Source: an uncultured bacterium | Lineage (GTDB): Bacteria; Patescibacteriota; Patescibacteriia; CAIQCM01 | Assembly: GCA_963708045.1 (NCBI GenBank) | Contig: OY970181.1 | Coordinates: forward strand, 779,537-843,536 | Length of the DNA stretch: 64,000 nt | Direction of reading: 5' to 3' | The notes under the pieces: model-generated | The model's input: only the letters and a program-made list of their open reading frames with translations | Database searches by the model: none | Told to the model about the DNA's origin: nothing | Shown: positions 3,743-53,322 of the stretch, in pieces | How positions within the stretch are numbered: the first letter of the stretch is position 1 | Layout of the letters: every line of letters begins with the position of its first letter | Made by a program: the position numbers and the translations under genes

Positions 3743-3745
3743 ATT

Positions 3746-6076: not shown

Positions 6077-6133
6077 AGCCCTGTTGATTGAATTACCCAA
6101 ACAAATAATATAAATTAATTCGTAAAAATAATT

Positions 6134-10659: not shown

Positions 10660-10701
10660 ATTTTTAGAAGAGATATGAAGAGTAAGCACAGAAATAAAAA
10701 T

Positions 10702-10763
10702 GCCCACCTCGCGGAGATGAGTCAAAATCTAAAAAGACTTTGGTTAATCTCTGCGAAGTGGGC
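10702..10763 (-). terminator. long stem-loop (17-bp imperfect stem) followed by a T-run on the minus strand
   Basis: 'gcccacctcgcggagat' (10702-10718) pairs with 'atctctgcgaagtgggc' (10747-10763) with 2 mismatches. On the minus strand the stem is followed by 'attttta ttt'. It lies between the 149-aa minus-strand ORF and the ParB-MTase gene. Confidence 0.35.
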
Positions 10764-28149: not shown

Positions 28150-29199
28150 TTATTTTGTAATCGGGTCGCCGATTTTATAGTTGGTAAAAAATACATCAGG
28201 AATATCTTCAACTTTTTTTGCCCAGACTGATCCGTAGTATTTAACGGCAATGGCGGTTGAAGATATCCAACGGAGAGTGCCGTTTTTGTCAACGGCGTAC
28301 ACCTTTGAATCGGTTTGAATTTTAACGAGCTTTACTCCTGGACGATAAGTTACATTTCCGCCCAAACTAATTTTTGCCATATCTTCGGGTGAAATTGTTT
28401 GAACGGTGGAGAAATCTTTGTACCACGTGGCGTAGGTGTTGGCGTTTGGAAAAACATAACGCCGACCGTCTTCGCCGCAATAATATACCGATGCATTTGT
28501 TGCCGTACGAATAAGCGAGCCAGACGCGCAATAAATAATTGTTGAAGGATTAACAACTAATCCTTTGTCGGCGTTAATGGATGGACTCATAGCCTCGGCG
28601 TCGGATACATTATAAGTATATATTTCTAGCGCGGCGTTTAAATATGGATATGGATTAATTGCGACGCTATCCTTAAGGCGGATTTCAAAATGAAGATGCG
28701 AAACGGTGGACTCGGCGTTTCCGGAGTCGCCAACCCAGGCAAGAAGTTGTCCTTGAATCACCGTCGCGCCCGCCTGAATGCCGGGCGCATAAGCATATTG
28801 CGTTCCGCCTGCGCCATCGTCGGTTCCCGGCGTGTCGTTATTAATGTGCACATAATTATATTCATAGCCATCGTCGCCGGCGATTGAAAGATAATATCCG
28901 TAATCCGGTTCGGTGGTTGGTGCAAAAGTAATCGTGCCGCCCCTAGCCGCGATAATCGGTGTCATTTTTGGCGCAATAAGATCGTTGCCGTAGTGCAGTC
29001 GCCCTGTGCTTGCTCCATCGTTAAAGTCGTCGGTAAAGCTCGCGCCTCCTTGAACTGGAAAGATGATACTAGGTGGTCCGGATATGGGAATTTCCGCCGT
29101 ATGGTGCCACCCAAAGTCGGAATAAGACTGCGCCTTAGCCAAAAACGGTGAAAACACGGCCGCAAAAATCAAAATAAATAAGACTATCTGTTTTTTCAT
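28150..29199 (-). CDS. secreted M23-family (LytM-like) peptidoglycan endopeptidase with an extra C-terminal domain
   Basis: Signal peptide 'MKKQIVLFILIFAAVFSPFLAKA'. M23 motifs 'HYGNDL' (HxxxD) and 'SHLHFE' (HxH). The track start (29220) lies 7 codons upstream of this ATG. Confidence 0.8.
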   Translation of the reverse strand: MKKQIVLFILIFAAVFSPFLAKAQSYSDFGWHHTAEIPISGPPSIIFPVQGGASFTDDFNDGASTGRLHYGNDLIAPKMTPIIAARGGTITFAPTTEPDYGYYLSIAGDDGYEYNYVHINNDTPGTDDGAGGTQYAYAPGIQAGATVIQGQLLAWVGDSGNAESTVSHLHFEIRLKDSVAINPYPYLNAALEIYTYNVSDAEAMSPSINADKGLVVNPSTIIYCASGSLIRTATNASVYYCGEDGRRYVFPNANTYATWYKDFSTVQTISPEDMAKISLGGNVTYRPGVKLVKIQTDSKVYAVDKNGTLRWISSTAIAVKYYGSVWAKKVEDIPDVFFTNYKIGDPITK

Positions 29200-29469
29200 A
29201 TACTTGTATCTTACACCCAAACCGGGACAGGACCGCTTATTGACGACATACTGGTATACTGCAAAACAATTCTCTGTGATTTGACTGACTAAGACGCCGT
29301 GAGTGAAAAATTCGCCAAGGCGTCTTTCTTAATTAAAAAATCGCCGGTTTATAAACCGATACTCTGACTTGTCCAGATATTTATCTTGAAGAGAGTGGAC
29401 GAAAATGTTATCTTAAGTAGTGAGCATCAATTAATCGAAAGCCGTATTTATTTGTACATCCAAGTTTCT

Positions 29470-32400
29470 ATGAAAAAAGTTTTTGGGACAATACTCTTGG
29501 TAGTCTTGGTGTTGGTGGGCTTCCTTGAACATGTTCCAAATGCTTCCGCTGCCGTGGACTGGGTTGCGTATAATGACGCCGGAGGGTCAGCCAATTTTGC
29601 ATCAACGGGAAATGTCACCAACTATAGTTTTACGCAAGCAAGCGCGGCTAATTTATTGAAATATGCCGATGGCACCAGCTCTGGCGTCACGGTTGCTTTT
29701 GCCGGAACCAACAATGGAGTGTACGCCGCTGCCGATGGTACTTACGCTAGTCCATACGTAACATCAAGCACGGATGCTTATAATGAATTAGTCGGCGGTG
29801 GAACGCCCATTATCAATTTGGGTTATGCCAGCCAAGTAACAACAACCAACACCATCACCATGACTTTGAGTGGTGTTTCGTCTGCCAAAACTTATGATTT
29901 GGTGATGTTTGGCGACCGTGGCAACAGTACCTATACGACCAGATACACCAAATACACCGTATCGGGCGTTCAAAGCGGGTTTGTGAACGCAAGTTCTACG
30001 GGCGCTACGAAAGCCACAACGACTTTGGCAAATGATTCAACATATTATTGTACAGGGTTCAACTATACTGCGGGTTATGTTGCAAAGTGGACCGGTTTGG
30101 TTCCGACAGGTACCACCATAACGGTCACTATTAAAGGGGTGGATGCAACCGGAGCGAGTGTCAGCATGACCGCTTATCTTAACGCCTTCAAGCTCACCCA
30201 AAATACCCCAACTTCTATCGTCGCGCCGACCGTTACGGCTTCGGCCGCGAGCACTATTACGGCGAACGGTGCTGACTTAAACGGTAATATCACTGTTGAT
30301 GGGGGAGAGTCCGCTACTGCAAGAGGTTTCCATTATGGTCTCACCGCTTCATACGGTTCAACTTCTACCACCTCCGGAACATACGGCACGGGCGCGTATT
30401 CGCAAACTATTTCCGGCTTAACTTGCAACACTCTTTACCATTACAGATCTTTTGCCACGAACTCGGGCGGCACCGGCACGTCGGCGGACGGCACTTTTAC
30501 CACCTCGGCGTGTTCCGCGCCGACCGTTACGGCTTCGGCTGCGAGCACTATCACGACCACTGGTGCTGATTTGAATGGTAATATCACGGCTGACGGCGGA
30601 GCCGCTCCTACCGCCAGGGGTTTTTATTATGGAACCACCGTTTCGTACGGCTCGACCTCTTCCACGACCGGCACATACACCACGGGTACATATTCCCAAA
30701 GCATTACTGGTTTAACCTGCAATACTCTTTATCATTATCAGGCCTTTGCTACTAACTCCGGTGGTACAGGGACCGCGACCGATGGAACCTTCACCACTGC
30801 GGCATGTCCTGTTGCGCCTACTGTTACAGCTTCAGCCGCTAGCTCGATTACGACTACTGGTGCGACCTTGACCGGCAACATTACCGCTACTGGTGGGGAA
30901 AATGCCACTGCAAGAGGTTTTCATTATGGAACCACTGTTTCATACGGTTCAACTTCTACCACTTCCGGTTCGTATGGCACTGGTGAATATACGCAAGACA
31001 TTACTGGCTTAACTTGCAACACTCTTTATCATTACCGATCTTTCGCCACTAACTCAGGCGGTACCGGCACCTCGTCGGACAACACCTTCACCACTGCGGC
31101 ATGTCCTGTTGCGCCAACTGTTACAGCTTCAGCTGCTAGCTCGATTACGACCACTGGCGCGACCTTGACCGGCAACATTACCGCTACTGGTGGGGAAAAT
31201 GCCACCGCAAGAGGTTTTCATTATGGACTCACCGCTTCATATGGTTCAACTTCTACCACTTCCGGTTCGTATGGCACTGGTGAATATACGCAAGACATTA
31301 CTGGCTTAAGCGCCAATACCATTTACCATTACAGGTCTTTTGCTACTAACTCGGGTGGCACCAGCACCTCTTCAGATAATACTTTCACCACCTCGGCTTA
31401 TTCGGTTCCCGGTGCCCCTACCAGCGCGGTCGCAACAGCCGGCAACACGCTAGCGTCCGTTGCTTTCACCGCCCCGGCATCGGACGGCGGCTCGCCCATC
31501 ACCGGCTACACCGTTACTTCAAGTCCGGGAAGTTTTACCGGCACAGGCGGCACTTCGCCGATCGTTGTTTCTGGTCTCACGAACGGCACGGCCTACACCT
31601 TTACGGTAACGGCGACGAATGTGGCTGGCACGGGTTCGGCTTCGACCGCCTCAAACTCGGTGACCCCGGCGCCCGCCGCGGGTTGGGTGGCGTATAACGA
31701 CGCTGGAGGATCGGGTACTTCGCCATCAACGGGCAATGTCACCAACGTCGCTTTTACGACGACGGCGGCAACTAATTTGGTGAAATATTCCGACAACACT
31801 AGTAGTGGTGTCACGGTTGCTTTTGCTAAAAGGGGTACCACTGGGACTTTTCAGTTGGGAGTCGCTGCCGAAGATACAGCTTCCAGCAACAGAGCATCTC
31901 CGTATGTAACATCTGGTACAGACGCCTACAATGAATTTGTCGGTGGGGGAACACCCATCATCAATTTGGGTTACGCGGGCCAAATAACGACAAACGGCAT
32001 TGTTGACATGACTTTGAGCGGCGTTTCGTCCGGTAAATCTTATGATTTAACGCTGGTGGCCTTGCGAGGTTATAACAACGCCAGTTATACAGGCAGGTAT
32101 ACGAAGACTATCGTATCGGGCGTCCAGGCAGGATTCACAAATGCCAGCTCGACCGGAACCACTATCACCACCACGACTTTGACGAACGATACCACGCGAT
32201 ATGTTGGGGGAGATAACTATGCGAACGGCTATGTTGCCAAGTGGACTGGTTTGGTTCCGACAGGCACCACCATATCCGTCTCATTTCAAGGTGTAGATTT
32301 GACTGGCGCAACCGGAGTAACCAACGCCCAAACCGCTTACCTTAACGCCTTCAAGCTCACCGAAAATGGTGCATCTTCAACAACTGTGCCGACCGTTACG

Positions 32401-35400
32401 GCCTCGGCCGCGACTTCGGTCACAGCTACCGGCGCCGCATTGAATGGCAATATCACAGCTGATGGCGGAGTCGCTCCGACCGCCAGAGGTTTTCATTATG
32501 GAACTACAGCTGCATACGGCTCGACCTCTTCCACGACCGGCACATATACCACGGGCACATATTCTCAAAGCATTACCGGCTTGACCTGCAATACCCTTTA
32601 TCATTACCGATCTTTTGCCACCAACTCGGCCGGTACCGCCACCTCGACGGACAGCACCTTCACCACCTCGGCGTGCTCCGCACCGGGAGCGCCGACCAGT
32701 GTTGTTGCGACAGGTGGCAATGCGCAAGCATCCGTCGCTTTCACGGCTCCGGCAAACGACGGTGGCTCGGCAATAACCGGCTACACCGTCACCTCAAGTC
32801 CGGGAAGTTTTACCGGCACAGGAAGTGCTTCGCCAATTGTCGTCACCGGACTCACGAACGGCACGGCATACACTTTCACAGTTACCGCGACGAATGCGAT
32901 CGGTACGGGTGCGGCTTCGACCCCCTCGAGTTCGATTACTCTGTCTACTGGAACAGGACCGCTCATTTCATCGGCGGCATCGCAGATGTTTTTGACGGGT
33001 AGTGCCGCGGCTGCGATTTCTACGATAACCGTAACCGACAATACTCTTACTCCGTACATAACGGCCGCTAACGACATCCGCATCAAAATTCCTTCTGGCT
33101 TCAACATGGTCTGGGATTCGACGGATACCGCCGCCACTATTGGTGGAGCGGCGTCAGCTCATGTATCGGGAACGGTTTCGTACGAAGACGCGGATAAGAC
33201 CCTGGTCATTAATGTCAGCGAAAATTTTGCTGTTAGCGACGTAATAACCATTTCCGGCCTGTCTTTCAAGACCTTCAGCGCGGCGTCCGTGGCCGATAAT
33301 TTGGAATTGGAGGTCAACAATGCCGGCACGACAATCGCCGTGGATGACAAGACGATTTCCATCACCGCAGTGACTGTTTCTTCTGCTGCTAACCAGACAT
33401 TTACCGTCGCAGATCCGACAACCGCGATGTCGCAAATTACCGTCACTGACAGCGCTTCGTCTCCGTATATAACGGCTACCAACGACATCAGGATCAAAAT
33501 TCCAGCCGGCCTCGACATGACTTGGGATGCAGCTGCTTTGGGAAGCGTTGTTATTGGCGGCGCAGCATCGGCCAAGATTAGCACCTCGGGAGGTCTTGAT
33601 TCGCCGTACACGCCGATCGTTAACTTGCACAGGGCGAACTTGCACGGGCATACCACGAATAGCGACGGCGCCCAGACGGCGTTCGGCCTACATGACTTCA
33701 TATTTGAACCTCGGTTATTCGGCGGCCGCCATCACTGATCACGATTATTTCACGCCCAACCCGAGCGTTTCTGGCATTACCCACGTGAGGGGTGTTGAGA
33801 ACACGGCCAATGCCGCCGGTGGAATGGGGGATATGGCTTCGTTTGGCATAACTTCATTTTTGTCGTCAAACAGGCAGACACAGGTCGATACCTATACGAG
33901 CCAAGGAGGTGTTTCTAGCGTCAACCATCCTATCACCGGTTGGACTAACGCCGGCACGGTGAATTTGAATGGCTACACAAATATGGAAGTCTTCAACTCC
34001 CATTACGGGGATTTGGAGCCGTATGTTGACTATGCGTTAAGCAACGGCAAACAGTTTTGGCTTGTTGCGAACGATGACCTTCATACTACTATTCAGATAT
34101 ACCGTGCTTGGAACGAGTTAAACAGCTCAAAGACCGTCGGAAACCTTACCGAAGCCGATGTCGTGAATATAATAAAAAGCGGCGATTTCTATGCTTATGG
34201 CAGAGGGGACAGAAGCAATGCTCCTGCTGCAGATCAACAGTACGGCAGTTTGCCGACCCCAGCTAAGTTTACGGGCATTACGGTGAGTGGTTACGCGGTT
34301 ACCGCTAATATCGATAAGAGCGCCAACATACAATTCATCACGAAAAACGGGACGATTTCGCAAACCAACAATAGTGTGACGACAGCCAGCTATACAGCGT
34401 CGCTCACTGATATTTATGTCAGGGTAAAGGTGTCCTACACTTCCGGGGGAAAAACCGCATACTCATTCAGCAACCCGATTTACATAACGGAGTCGGGCCC
34501 GGCGGCAGTTTCTTTGGAAGACAGCGGCAAGACGCTGGTCATCGATGTTGGAACTAACTTTGTTGCAGGTGACGCAATAACTATTTCGGGATTAAAATTC
34601 AACAACTTTACTACAGCGGGTTCCGGTAATTTGACCTTGTCGGTTAGCGGATCGGGAGCCACGGTAAATGACACTGACGACAAAACGATAACCATTGAAT
34701 CGGGATTACTGACCCCGACCGCTTCCATCACCAACACACCCCGGTCATACAACGGCTCGGCTCAAACCGCGACTGTCGCCTGTACAGGCGGAGGCACTGC
34801 CACGATCGCATCGGGCGGAACCGGAACTGATGCAGGGTCGTATGCGACCACGGTGAACTGCGCCGCGAGCGCTGGCTATGAAGCTGCGACAGGACTTTCA
34901 GCAGGAAACTTTGTTATCTCCAAAGCAACTCCAACTGCCTCCATCACCAACACACCCCGGTCATACAACGGCTCAGCTCAGACGGCGAACGTTGCTTGTT
35001 TAGGTGGAGGCGCCGCTACAATAAACACTGGCGGAACTGGCACCAATGCTGGTTCATACGCAACCACGGTTGATTGCGCCACGAGCACTAACTACTCCGC
35101 AGCAACAGGACTTTCAGCAGGGAACTTTGTTATTGAAAAAATAGCCCCTACTGCTTCCATCACTAATTCGTCTCAGCCATACACTGGCTCAGCGCAGACC
35201 GCGACTGTTGCTTGCTTGGGTGGAGGAACTGCCACGCTTGCGTCAGGTGGAACCGGAACTGATGCAGGTTCGTATGCAGCCACCGTCAACTGTGCCACGA
35301 GCACCAATTATTCCGCAGCTACGGGACTTTCAGCAGGAAATTTCGTTATTGAAAAAATAGCTCCGACTGCTTCTATCACCAACACGCCACGGTCATACAC

Positions 35401-38400
35401 CGGCTCAGCTCAGACGGCGAACGTTGCTTGTTTAGGTGGAGGCGCCGCTACAATAAACACCGGTGGAACTGGCACAAGCGCTGGTTCATACGCAACCACG
35501 GTTGATTGTGCCACGAGCACTAACTACTCTGCAGCAACAGGACTCTCAGCGGGAAATTTCGTTATTGAAAAAATAGCTCCAACTGCCTCCATCACCAACA
35601 CGCCTCAGTCATACAACGGCTCGTCGCAAACCGCGAACGTTGCTTGTTTAGGTGGAGGAACTGCCACGCTTGCCTCAGGTGGAACTGGAACTGATGCAGG
35701 ATCGTATGCAGCCACCGTCAACTGCGCCGCGAGCACCAACTACTCTGCAGCAACAGGACTTTCGGCAGGAAATTTCGTCATTGAAAAAATAACTCCAACT
35801 GCTTCCATCACCAACACGCCTCAGTCATACAACGGCTCGTCGCAAACCGCGAACGTTGCTTGTTTAGGTGGAGGAACTGCCACGCTTGCCTCAGGTGGAA
35901 CTGGAACTGATGCAGGTTCATACGCAACCACGGTTGATTGTGCTACGAGCACCAACTACTCTGCAGCAACAGGACTCTCGGCCGGAAACTTCGTCATTTC
36001 CAAAGCAACTCCGACTGCTTCCATCACCAACACGCCCCGGTCATACAATGGTTCAGCTCAAACCGCGACCGTCGCCTGTACGGGCGGAGGCGCCGCTACA
36101 ATAAACACCGGTGGAACTGGCACAAGCGCTGGTTCATACGCAACCACAGTTGATTGTGTTGCAAGCACAAACTACTCCGCCGCCACGGGACTTTCGGCGG
36201 GTGACTTCGTCATTTCCAAAGCAACTCCAACTGCCTCCATCACCAACACACCCCGGTCATACAATGGTTCAGCTCAAACCGCGACTGTTGCTTGTTTGGG
36301 TGGAGGTGCCGCTACAATAAACACTGGCGGAACTGGCACCAATGCTGGAACATACGCAACCATGGTTGATTGCGCCACAAGCACCAACTACTCTGCAGCC
36401 ACCGGACTTTCAGCAGGGAACTTTGTTATTGAAAAAATAGCTCCAACTGCTTCCATCACCAACACACCCCGGTCATACAATGGTTCAGCTCAAACCGCGA
36501 CTGTTGCTTGTTTGGGTGGAGGTGCCGCTACAATAAACACGGGTGGAACTGGCACCAATGCTGGAACATACGCAACCACGGTTGATTGCGCCACAAGCAC
36601 CAACTATAATGCCGCCACCGGATTATCGGCAGGCGACTTCGTAATCTCTAAGATTGCTCCTACCGCTTCCATCACCAATTCGTCTCAGCCATACACTGGC
36701 TCAGCGCAGACGGCGACTGTTGCTTGTTTAGGTGGAGGCGTTGCCACGCTTGCGTCAGGTGGAACTGGAACTGATGCAGGATCGTATGCAGCTATAGTTG
36801 ATTGCGCCACAAGCACCAACTACTCTGCAGCCACCGGACTTTCAGCAGGGAACTTTGTTATTGAAAAAATAGCTCCAACTGCTTCCATCACTAATTCGTC
36901 TCAGCCATACACTGGCTCAGCGCAGACTGCGACTGTCGCCTGTACAGGCGGAGGCGCCGCTACAATAAACACCGGTGGAACTGGCACAAGCGCTGGTTCA
37001 TACGCAACCACGGTTGATTGTGCCACGAGCACCAACTACTCCGCAGCAACAGGACTCTCGGCAGGAAATTTCGTTATTGAAAAAATAGCCCCAACTGCTT
37101 CCATCACTAATTCGTCTCAGCCATACACTGGCTCAGCGCAGACCGCGACTGTTGCTTGTTTAGGTGGAGGCGTTGCAACGCTTGCCTCAGGCGGAACCGG
37201 AACTGATGCAGGTTCGTATGCAGCCACCGTCAACTGCGCCGCGAGTACCAACTACAATGCCGCCACCGGATTATCGGCAGGCGACTTCGTAATCTCTAAG
37301 ATTGCTCCTACTGCCTCCATCACCAATTCGCCTCAGTCATACAACGGCTCAGCGCAGACTGCGACTGTCGCCTGTACAGGCGGAGGCGCCGCTACAATAA
37401 ACACCGGTGGAACTGGCACAAGCGCTGGTTCATACGCAACCACAGTTGATTGTGTTGCAAGCACAAACTACTCCGCCGCCACGGGACTTTCGGCGGGTGA
37501 CTTCGTCATTTCCAAAGCAACTCCAACTGCCTCCATCACCAACACACCCCGGTCATACAATGGTTCAGCTCAAACCGCGACTGTTGCTTGTTTGGGTGGA
37601 GGTGCCGCTACAATAAACACTGGCGGAACTGGCACCAATGCTGGAACATACGCAACCATGGTTGATTGCGCCACAAGCACCAACTACTCTGCAGCCACCG
37701 GACTTTCAGCAGGGAACTTTGTTATTGAAAAAATAGCTCCAACTGCTTCCATCACTAATTCGTCTCAGCCATACACTGGCTCAGCTCAGACCGCGACTGT
37801 TGCTTGTTTAGGTGGAGGCGTTGCCACGCTTGCGTCAGGTGGAACTGGAACTGATGCAGGATCGTATGCAGCTATAGTTGATTGCGCCACAAGCACCAAC
37901 TACTCTGCAGCCACCGGACTTTCAGCAGGGAACTTTGTTATTGAAAAAATAGCTCCAACTGCTTCCATCACTAATTCGTCTCAGCCATACACTGGCTCAG
38001 CGCAGACTGCGACTGTCGCCTGTACAGGCGGAGGCGCCGCTACAATAAACACCGGTGGAACTGGCACCAATGCTGGAACATACGCAACCATGGTTGATTG
38101 CGCCACAAGCACCAACTACTCTGCAGCCACCGGACTTTCAGCAGGGAACTTTGTTATTGAAAAAATAGCTCCAACTGCTTCCATCACTAATTCGTCTCAG
38201 CCATACACTGGCTCAGCTCAGAACCGCGACTGTTGCTTGTTTAGGTGGAGGCGTTGCCACGCTTGCGTCAGGTGGAACTGGAACTGATGCAGGATCGTAT
38301 GCAGCTATAGTTGATTGCGCCACAAGCACCAACTACTCTGCAGCCACCGGACTTTCAGCAGGGAACTTTGTTATTGAAAAAATAGCTCCAACTGCTTCCA

Positions 38401-41400
38401 TCACTAATTCGTCTCAGCCATACACTGGCTCAGCGCAGACTGCGACTGTCGCCTGTACAGGCGGAGGCGCCGCTACAATAAACACCGGTGGAACTGGCAC
38501 AAGCGCTGGTTCATACGCAACCACAGTTGATTGTGTTGCAAGCACAAACTACTCCGCCGCCACGGGACTTTCGGCGGGTGACTTCGTCATTTCCAAAGCA
38601 ACTCCAACTGCCTCCATCACCAACACACCCCGGTCATACAATGGTTCAGCTCAAACCGCGACTGTTGCTTGTTTGGGTGGAGGTGCCGCTACAATAAACA
38701 CTGGCGGAACTGGCACCAATGCTGGAACATACGCAACCATGGTTGATTGCGCCACAAGCACCAACTACTCTGCAGCCACCGGACTTTCAGCAGGGAACTT
38801 TGTTATTGAAAAAATAGCTCCAACTGCTTCCATCACTAATTCGTCTCAGCCATACACTGGCTCAGCTCAGAACCGCGACTGTTGCTTGTTTAGGTGGAGG
38901 CGTTGCCACGCTTGCGTCAGGTGGAACTGGAACTGATGCAGGATCGTATGCAGCTATAGTTGATTGCGCCACAAGCACCAACTACTCTGCAGCCACCGGA
39001 CTTTCAGCAGGGAACTTTGTTATTGAAAAAATAGCTCCAACTGCTTCCATCACTAATTCGTCTCAGCCATACACTGGCTCAGCGCAGACTGCGACTGTCG
39101 CCTGTACAGGCGGAGGCGCCGCTACAATAAACACCGGTGGAACTGGCACCAATGCTGGAACATACGCAACCACGGTTGATTGTGTTGCAAGCGCTAACTA
39201 CTCTGCAGCTACAGGACTTTCAGCAGGGAACTTCGTCATTGAAAAAATAACTCCAACTGCTTCCATCACTAATTCGTCTCAGCCATACACTGGCTCAGCG
39301 CAGACGGCGACTGTTGCTTGTTTAGGTGGAGGCGTTGCCACGCTTGCGTCAGGTGGAACTGGAACTGATGCAGGATCGTATGCAGCTATAGTTGATTGCG
39401 CCACAAGCACCAACTACTCTGCAGCCACCGGACTTTCAGCAGGGAACTTTGTTATTGAAAAAATAGCTCCAACTGCTTCCATCACTAATTCGTCTCAGCC
39501 ATACACTGGCTCAGCGCAGACTGCGACTGTCGCCTGTACAGGCGGAGGCGCCGCTACAATAAACACCGGTGGAACTGGCACAAGCGCTGGTTCATACGCA
39601 ACCACAGTTGATTGTGTTGCAAGCACAAACTACTCCGCCGCCACGGGACTTTCGGCGGGTGACTTCGTCATTTCCAAAGCAACTCCAACTGCCTCCATCA
39701 CCAACACACCCCGGTCATACAATGGTTCAGCTCAAACCGCGACTGTTGCTTGTTTGGGTGGAGGTGCCGCTACAATAAACACTGGCGGAACTGGCACCAA
39801 TGCTGGAACATACGCAACCATGGTTGATTGCGCCACAAGCACCAACTACTCCGCAGCAACAGGACTTTCGGCTGGAAACTTTGTTATTGAAAAAATAACT
39901 CCAACTGCTTCCATCACCAATTCGTCTCAGCCATACACTGGCTCAGCGCAGACCGCGACTGTTGCTTGTTTGGGTGGAGGTGCCGCTACAATAAACACCG
40001 GTGGAACTGGCACTAACGCCGGGTCATATGCGACCACGGTTGATTGCGCCACAAGCACAAACTACTCCGCAGCAACGGGACTCTCGGCAGGAAACTTTGT
40101 TATTGAAAAAATAACTCCTACAGCTTCCATCACTAATTCGTCTCAGCCATACACTGGCTCAGCGCAGACGGCGACTGTTGCTTGTTTAGGTGGAGGCGTT
40201 GCAACGCTTGCCTCAGGTGGAACTGGAACTGATGCAGGATCGTATGCAGCTATAGTTGATTGCGCCACAAGCACCAACTACTCTGCAGCCACCGGACTCT
40301 CGGCAGGAAATTTCGTTATTGAAAAAATAGCCCCAACTGCTTCCATCACTAATTCGTCTCAGCCATACACTGGCTCAGCGCAGACCGCGACTGTTGCTTG
40401 TTTAGGTGGAGGCGTTGCAACGCTTGCCTCAGGCGGAACCGGAACTGATGCAGGTTCGTATGCAGCCACCGTCAACTGCGCCGCGAGTACCAACTACAAT
40501 GCCGCCACCGGATTATCGGCAGGCGACTTCGTAATCTCTAAGATTGCTCCTACTGCCTCCATCACCAATTCGCCTCAGTCATACAACGGCTCAGCGCAGA
40601 CTGCGACTGTCGCCTGTACAGGCGGAGGCGCCGCTACAATAAACACCGGTGGAACTGGCACAAGCGCTGGTTCATACGCAACCACAGTTGATTGTGTTGC
40701 AAGCACAAACTACTCCGCCGCCACGGGACTTTCGGCGGGTGACTTCGTCATTTCCAAAGCAACTCCAACTGCCTCCATCACCAACACACCCCGGTCATAC
40801 AATGGTTCAGCTCAAACCGCGACTGTTGCTTGTTTGGGTGGAGGCGTTGCAACGCTTGCCTCAGGCGGAACTGGAACTGACGCAGGTTCGTATGCAGCCA
40901 CCGTCAACTGTGCCACGAGCACCAATTATTCCGCAGCTACTGGACTTTCGGCAGGCGACTTCGTTATCTCCAAGGCCACTCCAACCGCTTCCATCACCAA
41001 TACGCCTCAGCCATACACTGGCTCCTCGCAGACCGCGACTGTTGCTTGTTTGGGTGGAGGAGCTGCTACTCTCGTTTCCGGCGGAACCGGCACCAGTGTG
41101 GGGTCGTATGAAGCCTTCGTTAACTGTGCTGCCAGCGCCAACTATAACGCCGCCTCGGGGCTTTCGGCGGGCTTCTTCATTATCGGAACAGTAGCCCCCA
41201 CTGCCTACATTACCAACTCACCTCAGCTATACACCGGTTCAGCACAGACCGCTACGGTGGCTTGCACGGGCGGAGGAGTAGCCACTATCGCTTTAGGCGG
41301 AGTCGGCACTAACATCGGTTCATATCCGACCACTGTGAACTGCGCCGCAAGTCCCGGATACGAAGCGGCTACCGGCCTAGACGCCGGGAGTTTCGTCATC

Positions 41401-44400
41401 TCCAAGGCCACACCCACCGCTTCAATCATCAATTCGCCGCAGGTATACACCGGCTCCTCGCAAACTGCGACTGTCGCTTGTTTGGGTGGAGGAACTGCCA
41501 CGCTTGCCTCAGGCGGAACCGGCACCAATGCGGGAACATATCCTGCAATCGTCAACTGCGCTGAAAGCACAAATTACAATGCAGCCACAGGCCTCTCGGC
41601 AGGAAACTTCGTCATTGAAAAAATAACTCCAACTGCCTCCATCACCAACACGCCTCGGTCATACAACGGCTCGGCGCAAACCGCCACGGTGGTATGTTTG
41701 GGCGGAGGAACTGCCACGCTTGCCTCAGGCGGAACCGGCACCAATGCGGGAACATATCCTGCAATCGTCAACTGCGCCGCGAGCACCAACTATAACACCG
41801 CCTCGGGACTTTCAGCAGGCGATTTCGTAATCTCTAAGATTGCTCCGACCGCTTCCATCACCAATACACCTCAGCCATACACTGGTTCCTCGCAAACTGC
41901 CGCTGTCGCTTGTTTGGGTGGAGGAGTAGCAACGATTGCGACCGGTGGTACTGGTACTGATGCAGGTTCATACGCAACCACGGTTGATTGTGCTACGAGC
42001 ACCAATTACTCCGCCGCCACAGGACTCTCGGCCGGAAATTTCGTCATCTCTAAAGTAACTCCAACTGCCTCCATCACCAACACACCACAGTCATACAATG
42101 GCTCAGCTCAGACGGCCGTCGTTGCTTGTTTGGGTGGAGGCGCCGCTACAATAAACACGGGTGGAACTGGCACAAGCGCTGGTTCATACGCAACCACCGT
42201 TGACTGCGCCACGAGCACCAATTATTCCGCAGCTACGGGACTTTCGTCAGGGAACTTTGTCATCTCTAAAATTGCTCCAACAGCTTCCATAACCAACTCG
42301 CCTCAGTCGTACACCGGTTCGTCGCAAACGGCGGCCGTGTCTTGCTTGGGCGGGGGCGCTGCCACGATTAATACAGGCGGAACCGGAACTGACGCGGGAA
42401 CATATCCGGCCACGGTTGACTGCGCCACAAGCACCAACTACTCCGCCGCTACGGGACTTTCGGCTGGAAATTTCGTCATCTCCAAAGCAACTCCTACGGC
42501 TTCCATCACCAATTCGCCTCAACCATATACCGGCTCAGTTCAGACCGCCATCGTTGCTTGTTCGGGCGGAGGTGTTGCCACGCTTGCCTCAGGCGGAACT
42601 GGAACTGATGAAGGTACATATCCTACAATCGTCAACTGCGCTGAAAGCGCCAACTACTCAGCCGCTACGGGACTTTCGGCAGGTGACTTCGTTATTGGAA
42701 AAATAAACCCGACCGCTTCCATCACCAATACGCCACGGTCATACAACGGCTCAGCTCGAGACGGCGACTGTCGTCTGTACGGGCGGGGGCACTGCTACAA
42801 TAAACACTGGCGGAACTGGAACTAACGCCGGATCGTATGCGACCACAGTTGATTGTGCCGCAAGCGCTGGTTACTTCGCAGCCACGGGACTTTCAGCAGG
42901 AAACTTTGTTATTGAAAAAATAGCTCCAACTGCCTCCATCACCAACTCACCACGGTCATACACTGGTTCAGCCCAAACAGCGAACGTTGCTTGTTTAGGT
43001 GGAGGCACCGCTACAATAAACACCGGTGGAACTGGCACTAATGCGGGAACATACGCAACCACGGTTGATTGTGCTACGAGCACCAATTACTCCGTCGCCA
43101 CAGGACTCTCGGCCGGAAATTTCGTCATCTCTAAAGTAACTCCGACAGCTTCCATAACCAACTCACCCCAAACACACACTGGCTCGTCTCAAACTGCCGC
43201 GGTTTCTTGTTTGGGCGGAGGTGTCGCAACGATAAACACAGGCGGAACCGGAACTAATGCGGGAACATACGCAACCACAGTTGATTGTGCCACGAGCACC
43301 AACCACTCCGCAGCCACCGGACTTTCAGCAGGCGACTTCGTTATCTCCAAGGCCACTCCAACTGCTTCTATCACCAATTCGCCGCAGCTATATAACGGTT
43401 CGGCTCAAACGGCCGTCGTGTCTTGTTTGGGTGGAGGTGTTGCGACGCTCGCATCTGGCGGAACCGGCACTAATGCTGGAACATATGCCGCAGTCGTCAA
43501 CTGCGGCACAAGCACTAACTACTCCGCCGCCACGGGACTTTCGGCAGGAAACTTTGTCATTGAAAAAATAACTTCAACTGCTTCCATAACCAACTCGCCC
43601 CAAACATACACCGGCTCGGCGCAAACCGCGAACGTCGCTTGCTTGGGCGGAGGTGCCGCTACAATAAACACCGGTGGAACTGGCACTAACGCCGGGTCAT
43701 ATGCGACCACTGTTAACTGCGCCACGAGCACTAACTACAGCGCGGCCTCGGGACTCGCGGCGGGCGACTTCGTAATCTCTAAAGCGACTCCGACTGCTTC
43801 CATCACCAACACACCCCAGACATACACTGGTTCCGCTCAAACCGCGAACGTTGCTTGCTTGGGCGGAGGCGTTGCGACTCTTGCCTCAGGTGGAACTGGA
43901 ACTGATGCAGGTTCGTATGCGGCCACCGTCAACTGCGCCGAAAGTGCTAACTACTCAGCGGCTACAGGACTCTCGGCGGGAAACTTCGTCATCGGCGCTA
44001 CCCCAGTGGTAATCAGCGTTGCGGCAATACCCGGAGTCACGATCCCTGTGAGAGCAGTAACTCCAGTGTCAACTATAGCTGACACTGGTGAATACACCGC
44101 GACAATTACATGGTCGCCTGTAAGTAATCCATTTGCAGCAAACACCGTTTATACGGCAACAATTACGATCACGCCCAATGCGGGTTATACCTTAACAGGT
44201 ATAGCAAGTAATTTCTTTACAGTAGCTGGAACAAGTATTCCAGCTACAAATTCAGCAGGATCTGGGGTGGTCACGGCAGTATTTCCGGCGACGGGATCTG
44301 CGCCTTCTAGCGGTGGCGGTGGCGGCGGCGGTGGTGGCGGCGGGTATTATGTTCCACCACCAATCGCTCCGGTTGTTTCTGTTACGCCCCCTGTGTTGAC

Positions 44401-45070
44401 TCCGGCTCCGGTTGTTCCTGTTACACCCACCGAGACTTCTCCAACTCCAACTCCAGCTCCAGCGGTTTCTGATCAGGATAAATTCAAAAAGAATTTAACC
44501 TACCTCACAACGAACTCGGATATACGCGAGTTGCAAAAATATTTTAACGCAAACGGCTTCATAGTTGCATCAAGAGGCGCTGGTTCGCCAGGCAAGGAAA
44601 CGGATTATTTCGGCGATTCAACCTTAAGCACTCTCATTAAATTCCAAGAAGCAAATAAAGATAAAGTTGTTGGATTAATTGATGAAAAAGGATATTTTGG
44701 TCCGATAACTCGACAATTGATCAATACGATAATAATCACAAATCCAACTCCAGCTCCAGCGGTTTCTGATCAGGATAAATTCAAAAAGAATTTAACCTAC
44801 CTCACAACGAACTCGGATATACGCGAGTTGCAAAAATATTTTAACGCAAACGGCTTCATAGTTGCATCAAGAGGCGCTGGTTCGCCAGGCAAGGAAACAG
44901 ATTATTTCGGTGATTCAACCTTAAGCACTCTCATTAAATTCCAAGAAGCAAATAAAGATAAAGTTGTTGGATTAATTGATGAAAAAGGATATTTTGGTCC
45001 GATAACTCGACAATTGATCAATACGACAATAATCACAAATCCAACTCCAGCTCCAGCCCAGCAACCCTAA
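29470..45070 (+). CDS. giant (about 15.6 kb) cell-surface repeat protein gene, reading frame interrupted by four +1 shifts (near 33690, 38222, 38871 and 42757). It is either a pseudogene or an indel/assembly error in the repeats
   Basis: Signal peptide 'MKKVFGTILLVVLVLVGFLEHVPNASA' at 29470. The protein theme then continues without stops across frame 1 (to 33738), frame 2 (to 38287), frame 3 (to 38936), frame 1 (to 42825) and frame 2 (to 45070). Domains: a duplicated roughly 230-aa N-module, five Fn3-like roughly 97-aa repeats plus two Fn3 domains, a PHP domain, about forty 72-aa repeats, a poly-Gly/Pro linker and 2 x PG_binding_1. Confidence 0.7.
30229..31392 (+). repeat. four tandem roughly 291-bp Fn3-like repeats (a fifth copy at about 32383-32676)
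   Basis: Repeated 'PTVTASAAS.IT..GA.L.GNIT..GG..ATARGFHYG.T.SYGSTS.TSG.YGTG.Y.Q.I.GLTCNTLYHYRSFATNSGGTGTS'. Confidence 0.7.
33600..34130 (+). other. PHP (polymerase and histidinol phosphatase) phosphoesterase domain embedded in the giant protein, split by the first frameshift
   Basis: Frame 1 carries 'NLHGHTTNSDGAQT' (PHP motif I, D/N-L-H-x-H-T-x-x-S-D-G). Frame 2 continues 'YLNLGYSAAAITDHDYF' (motif II, AITDHD) with the expected spacing of about 27 aa. Later come 'NMEVFNSHYG' and 'LVANDDLHT' (the G-S-D-A-H-like motif). Confidence 0.55.
34700..43990 (+). repeat. about 40 tandem 216-bp (72-aa) repeats with two conserved Cys per unit (count estimated from length, not counted exactly)
   Basis: Unit consensus 'PTASITN[ST][PS][RQ][SP]Y[NT]GS[AS]QTA[TN]VAC[LT]GGG.AT[IL][NA][TS]GGTGT[NDS]AG[ST]YA..V[DN]CA[TA]STNYSAATGLSAG[ND]FVI[ES]K[IA]'. 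Several subtypes are present. There are long near-identical blocks, e.g. 38221 vs 38870 (period 649 = 3x216+1). Confidence 0.8.
44455..45036 (+). repeat. near-identical tandem duplication (2 x about 291 bp) encoding peptidoglycan-binding (PG_binding_1-like) domains
   Basis: 'PTPAPAVSDQDKFKKNLTYLTTNSDIRELQKYFNANGFIVASRGAGSPGKETDYFGDSTLSTLIKFQEANKDKVVGLIDEKGYFGPITRQLINT' occurs twice with only a few synonymous nucleotide differences. The pattern matches PG_binding_1 (L..G....DG.FG..T..A...FQ...GL..DG..G..T...L). Confidence 0.6.
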
Positions 45071-45299: not shown

Positions 45300-47126
45300 A
45301 TGATACGTAAAAGTAGCGATGGAAGGCGCGAAATCGTTCGCAGTATTAACGGAACGCCTCATGGCGGTCATTTGGAAACATTGGCCAAATTGGCTTTCGC
45401 GGTCATGCTGGTCGTGAACTTGCTGTCCTGGATGAATCAACGGTCTAAGCACGAGGTAGTCGCGACTCAGCACGGAGACATTGCGGCTTTGCACAAGGCC
45501 GAAGCGGCCTTTCAGACTTTTCAGTCCAAAGGAAATGCTTGGACGATTGATGATCTGGTCAACGTGCGAAACACACTCGTCACGATCCGCGATGCCGAGG
45601 GACACAGCCAGTCCGTAAGCACACGCATTGACGCGCTAGTTCAGGCCTCGGTCGGGAAAACTCTTGATGCGCTCAATAGTGCGGCGGCCGCATCTATTAC
45701 TGTGAAAGAAAGGATCGTTACTCAGGGTCGGGTGGAAAGGGTGCGAAGCGAACTGTTTTCTCACCCCCCATTTCAACCGGTCTTCGCGGGCGGTTTCGGA
45801 CATATTCTTTGGGCGCTGGCCAAGCTGGGCGGCAAGACCTACTTGCTGTTCATGTCGTTTGCGCTTCTCTGTTTTCTGGCGCGGGTATCAAGGAACCGGT
45901 TGTCACTCAGTGACGAATTGATGTTCGGGTTTCGGCGTCTCGCCGTTTCAACGGTCTTTTGGCCGGCTGGGATGTCCGAGTATCCGCGCGATACGGCCTT
46001 CGTGTTGCGTCGCCAGAAGATCGCCAAGGAATATTTGGTGCGGCATGGTAGAAGTGTTTGGGACTCGCTTACTGAAATGGATCAACGCGCCATTGACCGA
46101 CTGGTCATGCAGCCGCTCACTGAACTGCGTCAAAGTCTGGACGCGATTCGCGAACTCCCGTTCCGTCTCGTGCTCAAAGCCCGTCTCGCGTTCTGTGTCT
46201 CAGTGTTCGCGAGTTACATGCTTACGGTGACCACTTTCGGTCGCAGTACGGCTCATGCGGCGGAAAATACCGCGGTTACCGACGTGGCGGCGCAAGTCAC
46301 CACGCCTTCGCAAGATGCGCCGGAGGTTCCCCAACCGCTCAGTCTGAGCGGTTTTACGCAAGTTTCGGCGAACATGGAGAACGGCAACACCAAAGCCGAA
46401 CGCATGTTTATCCGAGGCGTTAGCGGCCCGTTCAAAGGACTAACTGTTAACTTAATGGGCAATGTCGTGAATCCGGCCTTGCTTATTGCTCAGGCAGTTT
46501 ACCGGCGCGGTTCAATTAGTGTCGGCGCCGGACAGATTGTCTACCCATCGGCGCTCCAGGTTCCTTCTCCGGACGGGCAAAGGATTATTGGCGGCCCGCT
46601 GTGTCAAAGTCTGATTCCTTTCTGGGGACTTGGCGCGGAAGTGCTCGGGGATCATGGGGTGGTTAAGTGGGGATTGGCGTATTTGTCCGAAACCGATCTT
46701 GGTGCACCAGGAGTCCGCAAACCGCGTTCGGCTCAAGCAGCGCTCTCTTTGCCAAAATTGGGACCATTTGGTTTACTGGTCACGGCAACCGTTGGCAAAG
46801 ATGACGCAGGAATACATGCCTATTATTCGGCAATGGCAAACCTCCATCTCGGCCCAGTTGATGTGGTTGGCAATGGCGTCCTCAACAAAGACGCGGGCGT
46901 CTTTTCCAAAGGAGTAACGGGTTTCCTCGGCTGGCATTTCACCCCGCATTTAGATGTTACGGGGCAATTCGACCGGCTCGAAGTTCCCAACGCTCCCGTG
47001 AATCAGCGCTTCGGGTTGCAAATCACTGCGCTTGGCTGGACAGATCGTCTGAGACTCGGAATCCTTGGATTCAGAAGCTCAGTCGCCGGCCTTGGTTCGC
47101 TCATGCGCTTGCAGTTCGCATTCTGA
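45300..47126 (+). CDS. hypothetical protein (608 aa) in a visibly GC-richer segment. The C-terminal third has beta-barrel/porin-like alternating hydrophobicity and ends in '...LQFAF'
   Basis: 1.8-kb ORF. Internal TM-like helices ('HILWALAKLGGKTYLLFMSFALLCFLARV'). C-terminal aromatic residue. GC is clearly higher than the flanks by eye (not computed). All competing ORFs are short. Confidence 0.4.
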   Translation: MIRKSSDGRREIVRSINGTPHGGHLETLAKLAFAVMLVVNLLSWMNQRSKHEVVATQHGDIAALHKAEAAFQTFQSKGNAWTIDDLVNVRNTLVTIRDAEGHSQSVSTRIDALVQASVGKTLDALNSAAAASITVKERIVTQGRVERVRSELFSHPPFQPVFAGGFGHILWALAKLGGKTYLLFMSFALLCFLARVSRNRLSLSDELMFGFRRLAVSTVFWPAGMSEYPRDTAFVLRRQKIAKEYLVRHGRSVWDSLTEMDQRAIDRLVMQPLTELRQSLDAIRELPFRLVLKARLAFCVSVFASYMLTVTTFGRSTAHAAENTAVTDVAAQVTTPSQDAPEVPQPLSLSGFTQVSANMENGNTKAERMFIRGVSGPFKGLTVNLMGNVVNPALLIAQAVYRRGSISVGAGQIVYPSALQVPSPDGQRIIGGPLCQSLIPFWGLGAEVLGDHGVVKWGLAYLSETDLGAPGVRKPRSAQAALSLPKLGPFGLLVTATVGKDDAGIHAYYSAMANLHLGPVDVVGNGVLNKDAGVFSKGVTGFLGWHFTPHLDVTGQFDRLEVPNAPVNQRFGLQITALGWTDRLRLGILGFRSSVAGLGSLMRLQFAF

Positions 47127-47838: not shown

Positions 47839-48774
47839 ATGAAAAAACGAATATTTATTTATTTGTTAACAATTGTACTTTTAGCAACGCCGATTTTATC
47901 TTTTGCGGCGGTTCCAGCGAACACGATTGGTCGTATTCTTTTGCAAGTTCAATCATCTGGCGAAGCTTGGTATGTGAGTCCGGTTACTAAAACGCGTGTC
48001 TACCTTAAAAACGGCGCGATGGCATATGACTTGCTCAGAACAGACGGTTTGGGAATAACAAAAAACGATTTATCTTTAATACCGATTGGGATTGAAGATC
48101 GTTTCGTTGGCTCTGATACTGATACTGACGGCGATGGTTTACCCGACACCCTTGAGCAAGCCATAGGAACGGATCCGAATAAAGTTGATACTGATGGTGA
48201 CGGCTTTTCTGATGGTGTTGAGGTTCGGAGTGGCTATGACCCCGTCGGCAACAAATCCGGCGCCAAAACTATCATCAACGCCGCGCTTACCAAACGTCTC
48301 TCGGGGCGCATTGTTATTGATGTCTCAAGGGTTGGTCAGGCTTGGTATATAAATCCGTCTAATCTTAAACGGTATTTTCTGAAGGATGGAAACGCGGCTT
48401 ACACGATCATGCGATATTTAAGTTTGGGTATCACCAACGCCAGTCTGGCGTTAATACCAATTGCTGCCCAAACGATTTCAGCAACTGGCGTCGCCAGTGT
48501 CCAATTAATATTAGAAGATTTTCGTCAAGCGTTCTTAACTTGCGATATGTCGCTGATTACAAAACACTCAACCGTTGAAACTTCAAAGATTGTATTGTCT
48601 TCATCGGCGCAATGCAAGAAGGCTAGTTCGGTAAAAGTTGAAAGCGTTACCGTAACTTCTAATTCAAATATTGAAGCTGTTTTGCAAATTGAAGGGGAAG
48701 CAAGCGGAAGCAAAGTTTTAATTTTTGTAAACGAAAATGGCGGTTGGAAGTTTGATATTAACGCCACTTATTGA
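47839..48774 (+). CDS. secreted protein with thrombospondin type-3-like calcium-binding repeats
   Basis: Signal peptide 'MKKRIFIYLLTIVLLATPILSFA'. 'DTDTDGDGLPDTLEQAIGTDPNKVDTDGDGFSDGVE' are TSP3-type D-x-D-x-D-G-x-x-D repeats. The duplicated flanking domain contains 'GEAWYVSP' / 'GQAWYINP'. Confidence 0.5.
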   Translation: MKKRIFIYLLTIVLLATPILSFAAVPANTIGRILLQVQSSGEAWYVSPVTKTRVYLKNGAMAYDLLRTDGLGITKNDLSLIPIGIEDRFVGSDTDTDGDGLPDTLEQAIGTDPNKVDTDGDGFSDGVEVRSGYDPVGNKSGAKTIINAALTKRLSGRIVIDVSRVGQAWYINPSNLKRYFLKDGNAAYTIMRYLSLGITNASLALIPIAAQTISATGVASVQLILEDFRQAFLTCDMSLITKHSTVETSKIVLSSSAQCKKASSVKVESVTVTSNSNIEAVLQIEGEASGSKVLIFVNENGGWKFDINATY

Positions 48775-52028: not shown

Positions 52029-52094
52029 GTGTTAGTAGTCTCCTATGTTTAATTTTGGCGACAATTGGTTGGGTATTGTATAGTTAATAACTAT

Positions 52095-52907: not shown

Positions 52908-52917
52908 CGCATTGCAT

Positions 52918-53322
52918 ATGTCCAATATAATTGCCGAAGTAAAACAACTAGAGTTTCCACTGGGTAAATATTCGGTCGTTGGTAGTGGAGCTTTGTCGGT
53001 TAGAAAAATACGAGAACATAACGATCTTGATATTATCGTTACTGACGATCTTTATGCGCAATTAAAGAATAATGGTTGGGAAGAGAGGCAAAAAAATAAT
53101 GGTCACTTTAATTTATATAAAGAGAATGTAGAAATTGATAAAAATTTTTCAAATATCGCTAATTGCGACCTTAAGACCGAAGCGGTAATCAAAAACTCGG
53201 ACATCATTAATGGCGTACCATTTATGTCATTAAAAGATTTGCTTATTTTAAAACAAGCTCTGGGACGAGAAAAAGATTTTAAAGATATTGAATCAATAAA
53301 TAAGTATTTGGAAAGCCTGTAA
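52918..53322 (+). CDS. minimal nucleotidyltransferase-domain protein
   Basis: 'VVGSGALSVRKIREHNDLDIIV' is a G-S ... D-x-D nucleotidyltransferase-fold motif. The ATG at 52918 follows the pilin stop. Confidence 0.45.
   Translation: MSNIIAEVKQLEFPLGKYSVVGSGALSVRKIREHNDLDIIVTDDLYAQLKNNGWEERQKNNGHFNLYKENVEIDKNFSNIANCDLKTEAVIKNSDIINGVPFMSLKDLLILKQALGREKDFKDIESINKYLESL

Follow-up and report, generated by a model that had tools for sequence, protein, structure and literature searches.

Fibrillar adhesins and periscope proteins act through a distal head carried on a stalk and are attached to the cell wall (PMC8201768, PMC8286594). In the periscope class, arrays of highly similar domains form rods, the length of which is altered by intragenic recombination (PMC8201768). 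Here we describe a giant gene of comparable layout in a 64,000-nucleotide (nt) stretch of DNA from an uncultured bacterium (GenBank assembly GCA_963708045.1, contig OY970181.1, positions 779,537 to 843,536), hereafter the window; the source contig measures 1,188,223 bp. The gene runs on the plus strand from an ATG at 29470 to a stop codon at 45068–45070, and all of its features given below are on that strand. As in SasG/Aap, Rib/alpha C and Sgo_0707 (PMC8201768, PMC8286594), its product combines an N-terminal signal peptide, distal putative binding modules, a long tandem array with DNA-identical copies as a stalk, and a C-terminal wall attachment; through its DNA-identical repeats it bears the hallmark of the periscope class (PMC8201768). 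Unlike in those proteins, the anchor consists of two non-covalent PG_binding_1 domains rather than an LPXTG/sortase signal, the stalk unit is of a two-cysteine MBG type, and the head carries a putative enzyme nested in a beta domain. On balance, we read the locus as one 5198-codon gene for a secreted, wall-held, stalk-shaped fibrillar adhesin/enzyme of the periscope type. Its modules follow in the order signal peptide, two N-modules interleaved with spacers of the fibronectin type III (Fn3) type, two RIKIP domains of which the second holds a PHP unit, 43 MBG-type repeats, a Gly/Pro linker and two PG_binding_1 domains.

One gene spread over five reading frames

An earlier note on this DNA, made by reading the sequence, had proposed a single coding theme of about 5200 codons. 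The theme and its coordinates proved right, but it is distributed over five stop-free stretches: 29368–33738 (frame 1), 33521–38287 (frame 2), 38169–38936 (frame 3), 38818–42825 (frame 1) and 42707–45070 (frame 2). Each frame change is one step forward (1>2>3>1>2), and a single open reading frame (ORF) of 5198 codons without internal stops emerges only after four bases are removed, namely a T at about 33682, an A at 38223, an A at 38872 and a G at 42758. The repaired ORF keeps a perfect period of 72 amino acids (aa) across the junctions that lie in the repeat array.

All four junctions split a domain. The first separates motif I of the PHP unit (LHGHTTNSDG), read in frame 1, from motif II (AITDHD), read in frame 2, and in the array each of the three junctions falls at ...G-S-A-Q/T-A-T-V-A-C..., with the bar marking the junction between Q and T. 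The downstream pieces open with out-of-frame nonsense, that is, read-through of the preceding domain, and lack a signal peptide, while the piece at 38169–38936 contributes no long ORF. Neighbouring stop-free stretches share 118 nt at three of the four junctions, a pattern that single-base shifts inside a repeat would produce. Because domains are cut at every junction and the downstream starts are out-of-frame nonsense without a signal peptide, the region 29470–45070 is one gene, interrupted in the assembly, and not several genes. This bears out the view of the earlier note that a single giant modular surface-protein gene is present, since every frame junction runs through the middle of a domain and none lies between genes.

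The GC content of the gene is 0.53, against about 0.42 in its flanks. At codon position 2 it reaches 0.64 (Thr/Ala/Gly/Ser), and at third codon positions (GC3) it is 0.475, similar to the neighbouring genes. High GC as a mark of horizontal transfer was therefore rejected: with a neighbour-like GC3 and the excess at position 2, the gene carries no compositional sign of foreign origin. No full-length homologue of the giant protein was found, which makes the overall combination of modules new, and no orthologue was found in a second genome.

A stalk of 43 two-cysteine repeats

An array of 43 tandem 72-aa (216-nt) repeats occupies aa 1749–4844 (34715–44005), and all units keep the exact 72-aa period. 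Tandem Repeats Finder returned a period of 216 nt with 42.1 copies (score 7593). Mean protein column identity among the 43 repeats is 84%, and each unit has two invariant cysteines, C23 and C49, together with a Gly-rich loop. With the extra bases taken out, several copies have exactly the same DNA sequence (8=14=19, 15=17=20, 12=27, 13=28 and 18=23).

The repeats share with MBG proteins (MBG_3, PF18887; MBG_2, PF18676) the 72-aa unit, an end-to-end alignment and the pattern Y-x-G ... G-[ST]-Y ... N-Y ... G-x-F-x-I-x-K; they differ in scoring below the family cut-off and in carrying the two invariant cysteines and the Gly-rich loop. Assignment to MBG runs through intermediate sequences. A profile of the repeats matched the protein fragments P0042 (E = 5.3e-19), P0043 (7e-13) and P0054 (1.2e-4; P numbers are our own labels for relatives), and these three pass the MBG_3 cut-off at 38.9, 27.5 and 26.8 bits, while P0044 passes MBG_2. 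Judged from these sequence links, the 72-aa repeats form a divergent subfamily of MBG, set apart by the two invariant cysteines. When 14–16 tandem repeats were searched against Pfam, no MBG match was obtained, only spurious ones (STK_08120-like, DUF6333). The close database relatives of the repeats are all fragments of 93–126 aa, which fits arrays at which assemblies tend to break.

A related MBG-type array of about 15 units lies at 2900–6100 of another contig (L081; ENA ERZ25039459, contig_30719), with a 216-nt period and about 65% nucleotide identity to the array in the window. It contains repeated frame changes, and the contigs of that assembly bear Flye-style names. Elsewhere on L081 the called genes are mostly short fragments; YitT_membrane and DUF2179, for instance, are split into products of 91 and 89 aa. 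These features suggest that L081 comes from an error-prone long-read assembly.

A putative metallohydrolase nested in a RIKIP domain

Two beta domains of about 140 aa each, here called RIKIP domains, precede the array. RIKIP1 spans aa 1166–1302 (32965–33375). The second copy is divided: its N-terminal half, aa 1303–1368 (33376–33573), aligns to aa 1166–1230 of RIKIP1, and its C-terminal half, aa 1679–1748 (34505–34714), aligns to aa 1235–1312. Taken as a whole, RIKIP1 (aa 1166–1312) aligns to aa 1303–1368 and then to aa 1679–1756 of the second copy. Between the halves lies a unit of about 310 aa (aa 1369–1678; 33574–34504) comprising a PHP-superfamily, CehA/McbA-like metallohydrolase domain with its own C-terminal beta domain, and containing the first frameshift. 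Since the two halves of RIKIP2 flank it, the PHP unit appears to be inserted in a loop of RIKIP2, and this predicted nesting is the unusual feature of the locus. Searches of PDB and Pfam with the RIKIP domain gave no match beyond a weak one to BppU_IgG (E = 0.004).

The repaired PHP segment of 304 aa has 29 relatives, mostly stand-alone proteins of 284–469 aa, at 24–35% identity and up to 99% query coverage; several of them are annotated with PF02811. Across the repaired junction the alignment is free of gaps, with SDGAQTASAYMTSY set against SDGAQSPTSLMTSY of P0004. The metal ligands H18, H20, D49, H50, E69, H112, D162 and H164 are invariant in 11 aligned sequences, including that of the window. 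A profile of this PHP family (A1) matched the solved PHP proteins 7ug9 (4e-16), 9etk (2.1e-15), 2anu (1.6e-13) and the two-domain protein 3e38 (4.4e-13). The unit thus shares with CehA/McbA and two-domain PHP proteins (NF038032; 3e38, 2anu, 7ug9) the predicted PHP fold, the HxH, SDG, TDH, E, HP and DxH ligands and a C-terminal beta domain. These comparisons support the designation "PHP superfamily metallohydrolase, CehA/McbA-like", and by its scores the unit would be a relative of the NF038032 family and not a certified member.

The relatives are either stand-alone or have tandem Ig-like domains, whereas the unit in the window sits inside a domain of a 5198-aa protein. In those relatives that combine PHP with Ig-like domains (P0014 with Big_2, P0016 with TIG), the second domain lies alongside PHP and not around it, and among the relatives examined no other example of PHP nested in RIKIP was found. 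Opposite the RIKIP/PHP region, two antisense ORFs of 165 and 180 aa (33154–33701, minus strand) are in all likelihood spurious and stem from the Thr/Ala/Gly-rich sense frame.

A head with two copies of an unannotated N-module

The protein begins with a putative signal peptide at aa 1–28 (29470–29553; MKKVFGTILLVVLVLVGFLEHVPNASAA), recognized from the translation by its K-K, hydrophobic core and A-S-A; no clear Shine-Dalgarno sequence was seen upstream of the ATG at 29470. It is followed by the first N-module, aa 29–251 (223 aa; 29554–30222), and by four 99-aa Fn3-like repeats starting at aa 253, 351, 450 and 549 (30226–31407), for which Tandem Repeats Finder gave a period of 297, 3.6 copies and 79% matches. 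A first canonical Fn3 domain (aa 647–733; 31408–31668) leads to the second N-module, aa 737–973 (237 aa; 31678–32388), which is 68% identical to the first. A fifth 99-aa Fn3-like repeat from aa 974 (32389–32682) and a second canonical Fn3 domain at aa 1072–1158 (32683–32943) complete this part, the latter including the best-scoring Pfam fn3 stretch (aa 1074–1154). The two canonical domains correspond to two stretches that pass the Pfam fn3 model (PF00041) with E = 7.5e-19 and 68.2 bits against a gathering cut-off of 25. The 99-aa repeats stay below threshold, with Pur_ac_phosph_N at 6.8e-4 (20.6 bits) and fn3 at 0.12 (13 bits), and for them the label "Fn3-like" is plausible.

The N-module had first appeared to be an orphan, as a word-indexed homology search gave one weak match; an exhaustive HMMER search overturned this view with 336 proteins at E ≤ 1e-3, 109 of them at E ≤ 1e-10. 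The carriers hold one to six copies of the module, which is about 210 aa long, in proteins of up to 6419 aa, and two N-module clusters include NCBI members labelled as Phycisphaerae and Dehalococcoidia metagenome-assembled genomes. A search of genome contigs with the N-module gave no match. The family is marked by the motif W-[TV]-A-Y-N-D ... G-T-D-A-Y ... K-T-Y ... R ... Y-T-[IL]-S ... N-x-S-S-x-G ... G-Y-V-A-[KR]-W. In Pfam and NCBIfam the module has no model, and all matches of its profile to PDB had E > 0.01.

For structure prediction with AlphaFold2, a two-sequence alignment was useless (predicted local distance difference test score 44), and an alignment of 34 sequences gave a confident model, a beta-sandwich resembling those of carbohydrate-binding modules (CBMs) and malectin. 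Fold relatives include the N-domain of YxiM (2o14), the C-terminal sugar-binding domain of GH2 enzymes (6ed1/6d50), FERONIA (6a5e), CBM61, CBM36, CBM22 and CBM35. Identity to them is 7–16%, and the module is not a sequence member of any described CBM family in Pfam, NCBIfam or PDB profiles, so the likeness is one of fold only. Foldseek with the model returned nothing at E ≤ 0.001. Many CBM/malectin-type proteins of this fold bind anionic polysaccharides, which is a hint only.

Phosphoesterase-type domains recur among the N-module carriers. In 32 N-module proteins scanned, the partners were Metallophos in 13, Pur_ac_phosph_N in three and PhoD_N in one. The PHP family of the window was found in three of the 150 best N-module matches (P0151, P0071 and P0092; E 1e-46 to 1e-55 with the A1 profile), and RIKIP domains stand beside N-modules in P0057 and P0068 (domain E 1e-32 to 1e-40, local hmmsearch). 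From this co-occurrence of Metallophos, PhoD_N and PHP, the N-module and a phosphoesterase form a recurrent module pair, and the N-module itself defines an unannotated domain family of more than 300 proteins strongly associated with phosphoesterases. The protein of the window shares this combination of N-module and phosphoesterase-type catalytic domain with P0071, P0092 and P0151, which have PHP, and with P0056, P0057 and P0068, which have Metallophos. It differs in what surrounds the pair: none of the N-module proteins read or scanned has a RIKIP-nested PHP, a 43-unit MBG stalk or a PG_binding_1 anchor, and even the best non-self match, P0056 (4101 aa), has only the N-module in common. The protein encoded here amounts to the N-module/phosphoesterase pair, carried on a stalk and fitted with an anchor.

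The C-terminal anchor

After the array, a beta-rich domain of about 100 aa (aa 4845–4946; 44006–44311) was seen in the translation and has no significant Pfam match. It is followed by a run of 11 glycines (aa 4947–4957) and a Pro/Val/Thr-rich linker (44312–44461), and then by two PG_binding_1 domains and the stop codon (44462–45070). The two domains lie in a 297-nt duplication whose copies are 98% identical (Tandem Repeats Finder: period 297, 2.1 copies), and in two stretches they pass the Pfam model (PF01471; E = 3.5e-15, 56.4 bits against a gathering cut-off of 23). The giant protein has no LPXTG motif.

Immediately downstream, the gene at 45300–47126 encodes a 608-aa membrane protein with hydrophobic segments and a Gly-rich, beta-looking C-terminal half, for which no Pfam or NCBIfam match was found. 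It ends in ...LMRLQFAF, which resembles the C-terminal signature of outer-membrane beta-barrels. If this protein were an outer-membrane beta-barrel, the monoderm envelope of the anchoring model set out below would be in question.

Four frameshifts and a shared sequence motif

All four interruptions are +1 insertions, and none is a deletion or a nonsense change in 5198 codons. The first, placed by homology, is one extra base within about 33679–33686, modelled as T 33682, and lies 9–13 nt downstream of GCCCAGAC at 33670. The second is an extra A in GCTCAGA[A]CC at 38223 (repeat 17, unit phase 52), and the third is the same extra A at 38872 (repeat 20, unit phase 52), whose surroundings match those of the second over 444 nt without a difference. 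The fourth is an extra G in GCTC[G]AGACGG at 42758 (repeat 38, unit phase 49).

A GCYCAGAC-type site, encoding Ala-Gln-Thr, occurs eight times in the gene if the three disrupted copies are counted (33670, 34976, 35408, 37784, 38216, 38865, 42106 and 42754), and four of the eight have a frameshift at the site or within 13 nt of it. The 6.3 kb of non-repeat coding sequence contain a single site, at 33670; within the array, repeats 2, 4, 15 and 35 keep theirs intact, and in repeats 17, 20 and 38 it is disrupted. The chance of independent random indels falling at the motif is about (15/6300) × (7/216), or about 1e-5 before correction for the post-hoc choice of motif, and such a low value indicates a context-specific process. 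The extra A is missing from repeat 15, which otherwise has the same sequence as repeats 17 and 20; this suggests a penetrance of roughly 50%. The shorter CAGAC, a methylation-type motif, was rejected as the cause of error, with 26 intact sites in the gene and 46 outside it; only the longer GCYCAGAC context is specific to the frameshifts. Since genes for a type III Mod/Res pair and for two further N6/N4 methyltransferases lie in the window, it is conceivable that methylation of the motif, with the Mod at 2009–3742 as a candidate, is behind a base-calling error.

An independent Logan assembly of ERR15459707 reproduces both ends of the gene beside the same neighbours. Partial products expected around the first and fourth frameshifts, with Logan limits predicted from 31-mer uniqueness, are not on record, which is uninformative. 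Outside the giant gene, three same-strand ORF overlaps could hide a frameshift, at 52065–53322, 15223–16545/16442–17452 and 8144–8620/6646–8199.

Weighing the readings of the locus

The module list given by the earlier note was largely recovered. Its signal peptide, like ours, comes from reading the sequence only; the N-module present twice, the five Fn3-like repeats with two canonical Fn3 domains, the (Gly)11 and Pro-Val-Thr linker and the two C-terminal peptidoglycan-binding domains are all in place, the "about forty" two-cysteine repeats number exactly 43, and the "RIKIP.G" segments are present as two domains that align to each other, their only Ig-type match being the weak one to BppU_IgG. 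Its embedded PHP phosphoesterase stands as to superfamily, intact ligands and embedding, while "phosphoesterase" holds at the superfamily level only. Its suggestion that the combination, particularly the PHP domain, looks new agrees with the want of a full-length homologue and fails for PHP as such, which stands beside the N-module in at least three other proteins. We regard as new here the module combination, the nesting of PHP in RIKIP, the two-cysteine MBG subfamily in 43 copies and the attachment through PG_binding_1; a fibrillar adhesin of the periscope type is a known kind, and PHP or other phosphoesterases beside an N-module are not new.

In the mechanism that we propose for this adhesin/enzyme, the PG_binding_1 pair would hold the C-terminus on peptidoglycan by non-covalent contacts, and the wall would be crossed by the Gly/Pro linker. 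The 43 MBG units would form a rod of about 100 nm, taking 2.5–3.5 nm per domain, and the length of the rod would change by recombination between identical repeats. At the far end, the head would bind glycan via its N-modules and present a metal-dependent (phospho)esterase to it. If the four interruptions are consensus errors, the cell probably produces the protein in full. In that event about 1.3% of the 1.19-Mb genome would be devoted to one surface protein, a concrete candidate for the means by which a small-genome bacterium reaches and processes the surface of another cell.

A bolder version, which we hold to be improbable, takes the N-module as an undescribed glycan-binding family with a phosphoesterase (calcineurin-like, PhoD-like or PHP) as its regular partner, and the pair on its peptidoglycan-anchored stalk of about 100 nm as a long-reach, glycan-targeted phospho(di)esterase. 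Were it true, teichoic-acid-like or phosphoglycan polymers with phosphodiester links on the surface of a neighbour or host could be attacked or harvested by the cell, and the protein would be more than a passive adhesin. The N-module family in any case offers a testable lead for a new binding module.

Several findings weigh against an intact adhesin/enzyme interrupted by errors. The reading frame is broken in the sequence as given. The first and fourth frameshifts lie in unique 31-mers, where polishing with accurate reads should work, and the two GCYCAGAC sites outside the gene, at 28220 and 46342, are both in intact ORFs. The other 48 kb of the window have no broken domains, so the assembly is clean elsewhere, and real mutations confined to one gene would fit this as well. 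On the side of domain assignment, the repeats reach only 15.2–15.5 bits (E about 0.02, aligned over 4–72 of 72) against the MBG_3 cut-off of 25. The PHP unit scores 20.6 bits (E = 5.9e-4) against the PF02811 cut-off of 26.4, matching in its N-terminal motifs only, and the closest family model, NCBIfam NF038032 (CehA/McbA family metallohydrolase), matches it end to end (14–298 against 4–314 of 315; E = 3.8e-16) at 59.4 bits, below the curated cut-off of 80. The proposed function of the head derives only from fold and domain co-occurrence, and the anchoring model presumes a monoderm envelope, which we assume.

We nevertheless consider a systematic base-calling or consensus error the probable source of the frameshifts, because all four sit at one 8-base motif; the extra A that looks like two merged alleles and the many frame changes in the L081 array fit such an error too. 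That the four +1 insertions are genuine is possible but doubtful: the same giant gene would then be a recently inactivated pseudogene, or would yield only a secreted 1422-aa N-terminal fragment without stalk and anchor, with the second and third shifts spread by gene conversion or duplication. The confinement of the frameshifts to the giant gene within 64 kb speaks for it, as do their rough proportionality to length (one in the non-repeat part, three in the array), the uniquely mappable sequence around the first and fourth, and the 444-nt identical block around the second and third, as recombination would give; pieces of 1447 and 619 aa are also recorded separately in a public collection. Set against this are the improbability of all indels falling at one 8-mer, the complete lack of nonsense codons and deletions in 15.6 kb, the intact PHP metal ligands and the unaffected repeat 15. 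Bacterial pseudogenes are usually biased towards deletions, which also counts against decay. Partial misassembly is in our judgement unlikely; on this view the 9.3-kb array would have lost, gained or reordered units, with the frameshifts as by-products of mixed copies in the consensus. Many repeat copies are 100% identical, and the extra A of the second and third shifts (CAG-A-ACC) resembles the alleles CAGACC and CAAACC written into one, where the codons of the unit vary most; short-read Logan contigs stop exactly where 31-mers cease to be unique, and the related L081 array is full of frame changes. Yet the period of 72 aa is exact through 43 units with no partial ones, both ends adjoin the same flanking genes in the independent assembly, the first frameshift lies outside the array, and the fourth is in a copy that differs from all others at no fewer than 39 of 216 nt. 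Misassembly would in any event touch the copy number and not the identity of the gene, and an error in repeat number is best taken as a further caveat that overlaps both the artefact and the pseudogene readings.

Two further explanations were rejected. That the locus holds several separate genes, as recorded, is very improbable. A mechanical list gives ORFs of 1450, 1586, 1023 and 619 aa, and the public protein collection (entries credited to NCBI and ENA) records the first piece (1447 aa) and the last (619 aa) as separate proteins, but every boundary halves a domain, the downstream ORFs begin with out-of-frame read-through and have no signal peptides, 38169–38936 supplies no long ORF, and the 118-nt overlaps fit single-base shifts within a repeat. 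Slightly less credible still is programmed +1 ribosomal frameshifting or transcriptional slippage at a conserved GCY CAG ACN GCG (site GCTCAGAACC), for which the common motif and the uniform +1 direction of the four shifts could be cited. In four other repeats the frame runs through the motif unchanged, the extra base varies (T, A, A, G), and the site offers no slippery codon pair, no zero-frame stop or rare codon and no homopolymer run. With consensus error as the preferred source, the motif-tied frameshifts carry a warning that, in long-read genomes, consensus errors tied to a particular motif may divide a giant repetitive gene into several "proteins".

Genomic surroundings

The 64-kb window contains no rRNA or tRNA. 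RmlA and RmlB are among the neighbours of the giant gene, and in a search of genome contigs the relatives of RmlA were mixed (Nomurabacteria, Saccharibacteria, Clostridia and others, at 60–69% identity). The earlier note had cited giant surface proteins as a hallmark of episymbiotic small-genome bacteria; as a setting for this gene that is a conjecture, and the findings are compatible with a small-genome, possibly Patescibacteria-like organism.

Divergent from the giant gene lies a gene for an M23 peptidase, a peptidoglycan endopeptidase (28150–29220, minus strand), and a functional link between the two, with wall remodelling beside a wall-anchored protein, is conceivable. A TSP3_bac protein at 47839–48774, 2.8 kb downstream of the giant gene, is secreted, 311 aa long and carries bacterial thrombospondin type 3 calcium-binding repeats. 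Farther downstream, a pilin-like protein of 280 aa with an N_methyl motif and Laminin_G_3 overlaps by 83 nt with the next ORF of 165 aa, which has no domain match (the two together at 52065–53322). At 56185–58898, a NuoF-like flavoprotein (Complex1_51K, NADH_4Fe-4S) is directly followed by a 571-aa [FeFe] hydrogenase with a fused small-subunit domain; together they imply hydrogen metabolism in this 1.19-Mb genome.

At the other end of the window, a cluster at 456–21178 resembles a mobile element or prophage. It contains large serine recombinases at 456–1766 (minus strand) and 15223–16545 (plus strand), the type III restriction-modification Mod/Res pair at 2009–6076, and a ParB-fused and a second N6/N4 DNA methyltransferase at 8607–10725. 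The same cluster encodes an HTH_Tnp_1_2 protein (8144–8620), a LexA/S24-type repressor (12058–12663) and an IS200-type Y1 transposase (20498–21178).

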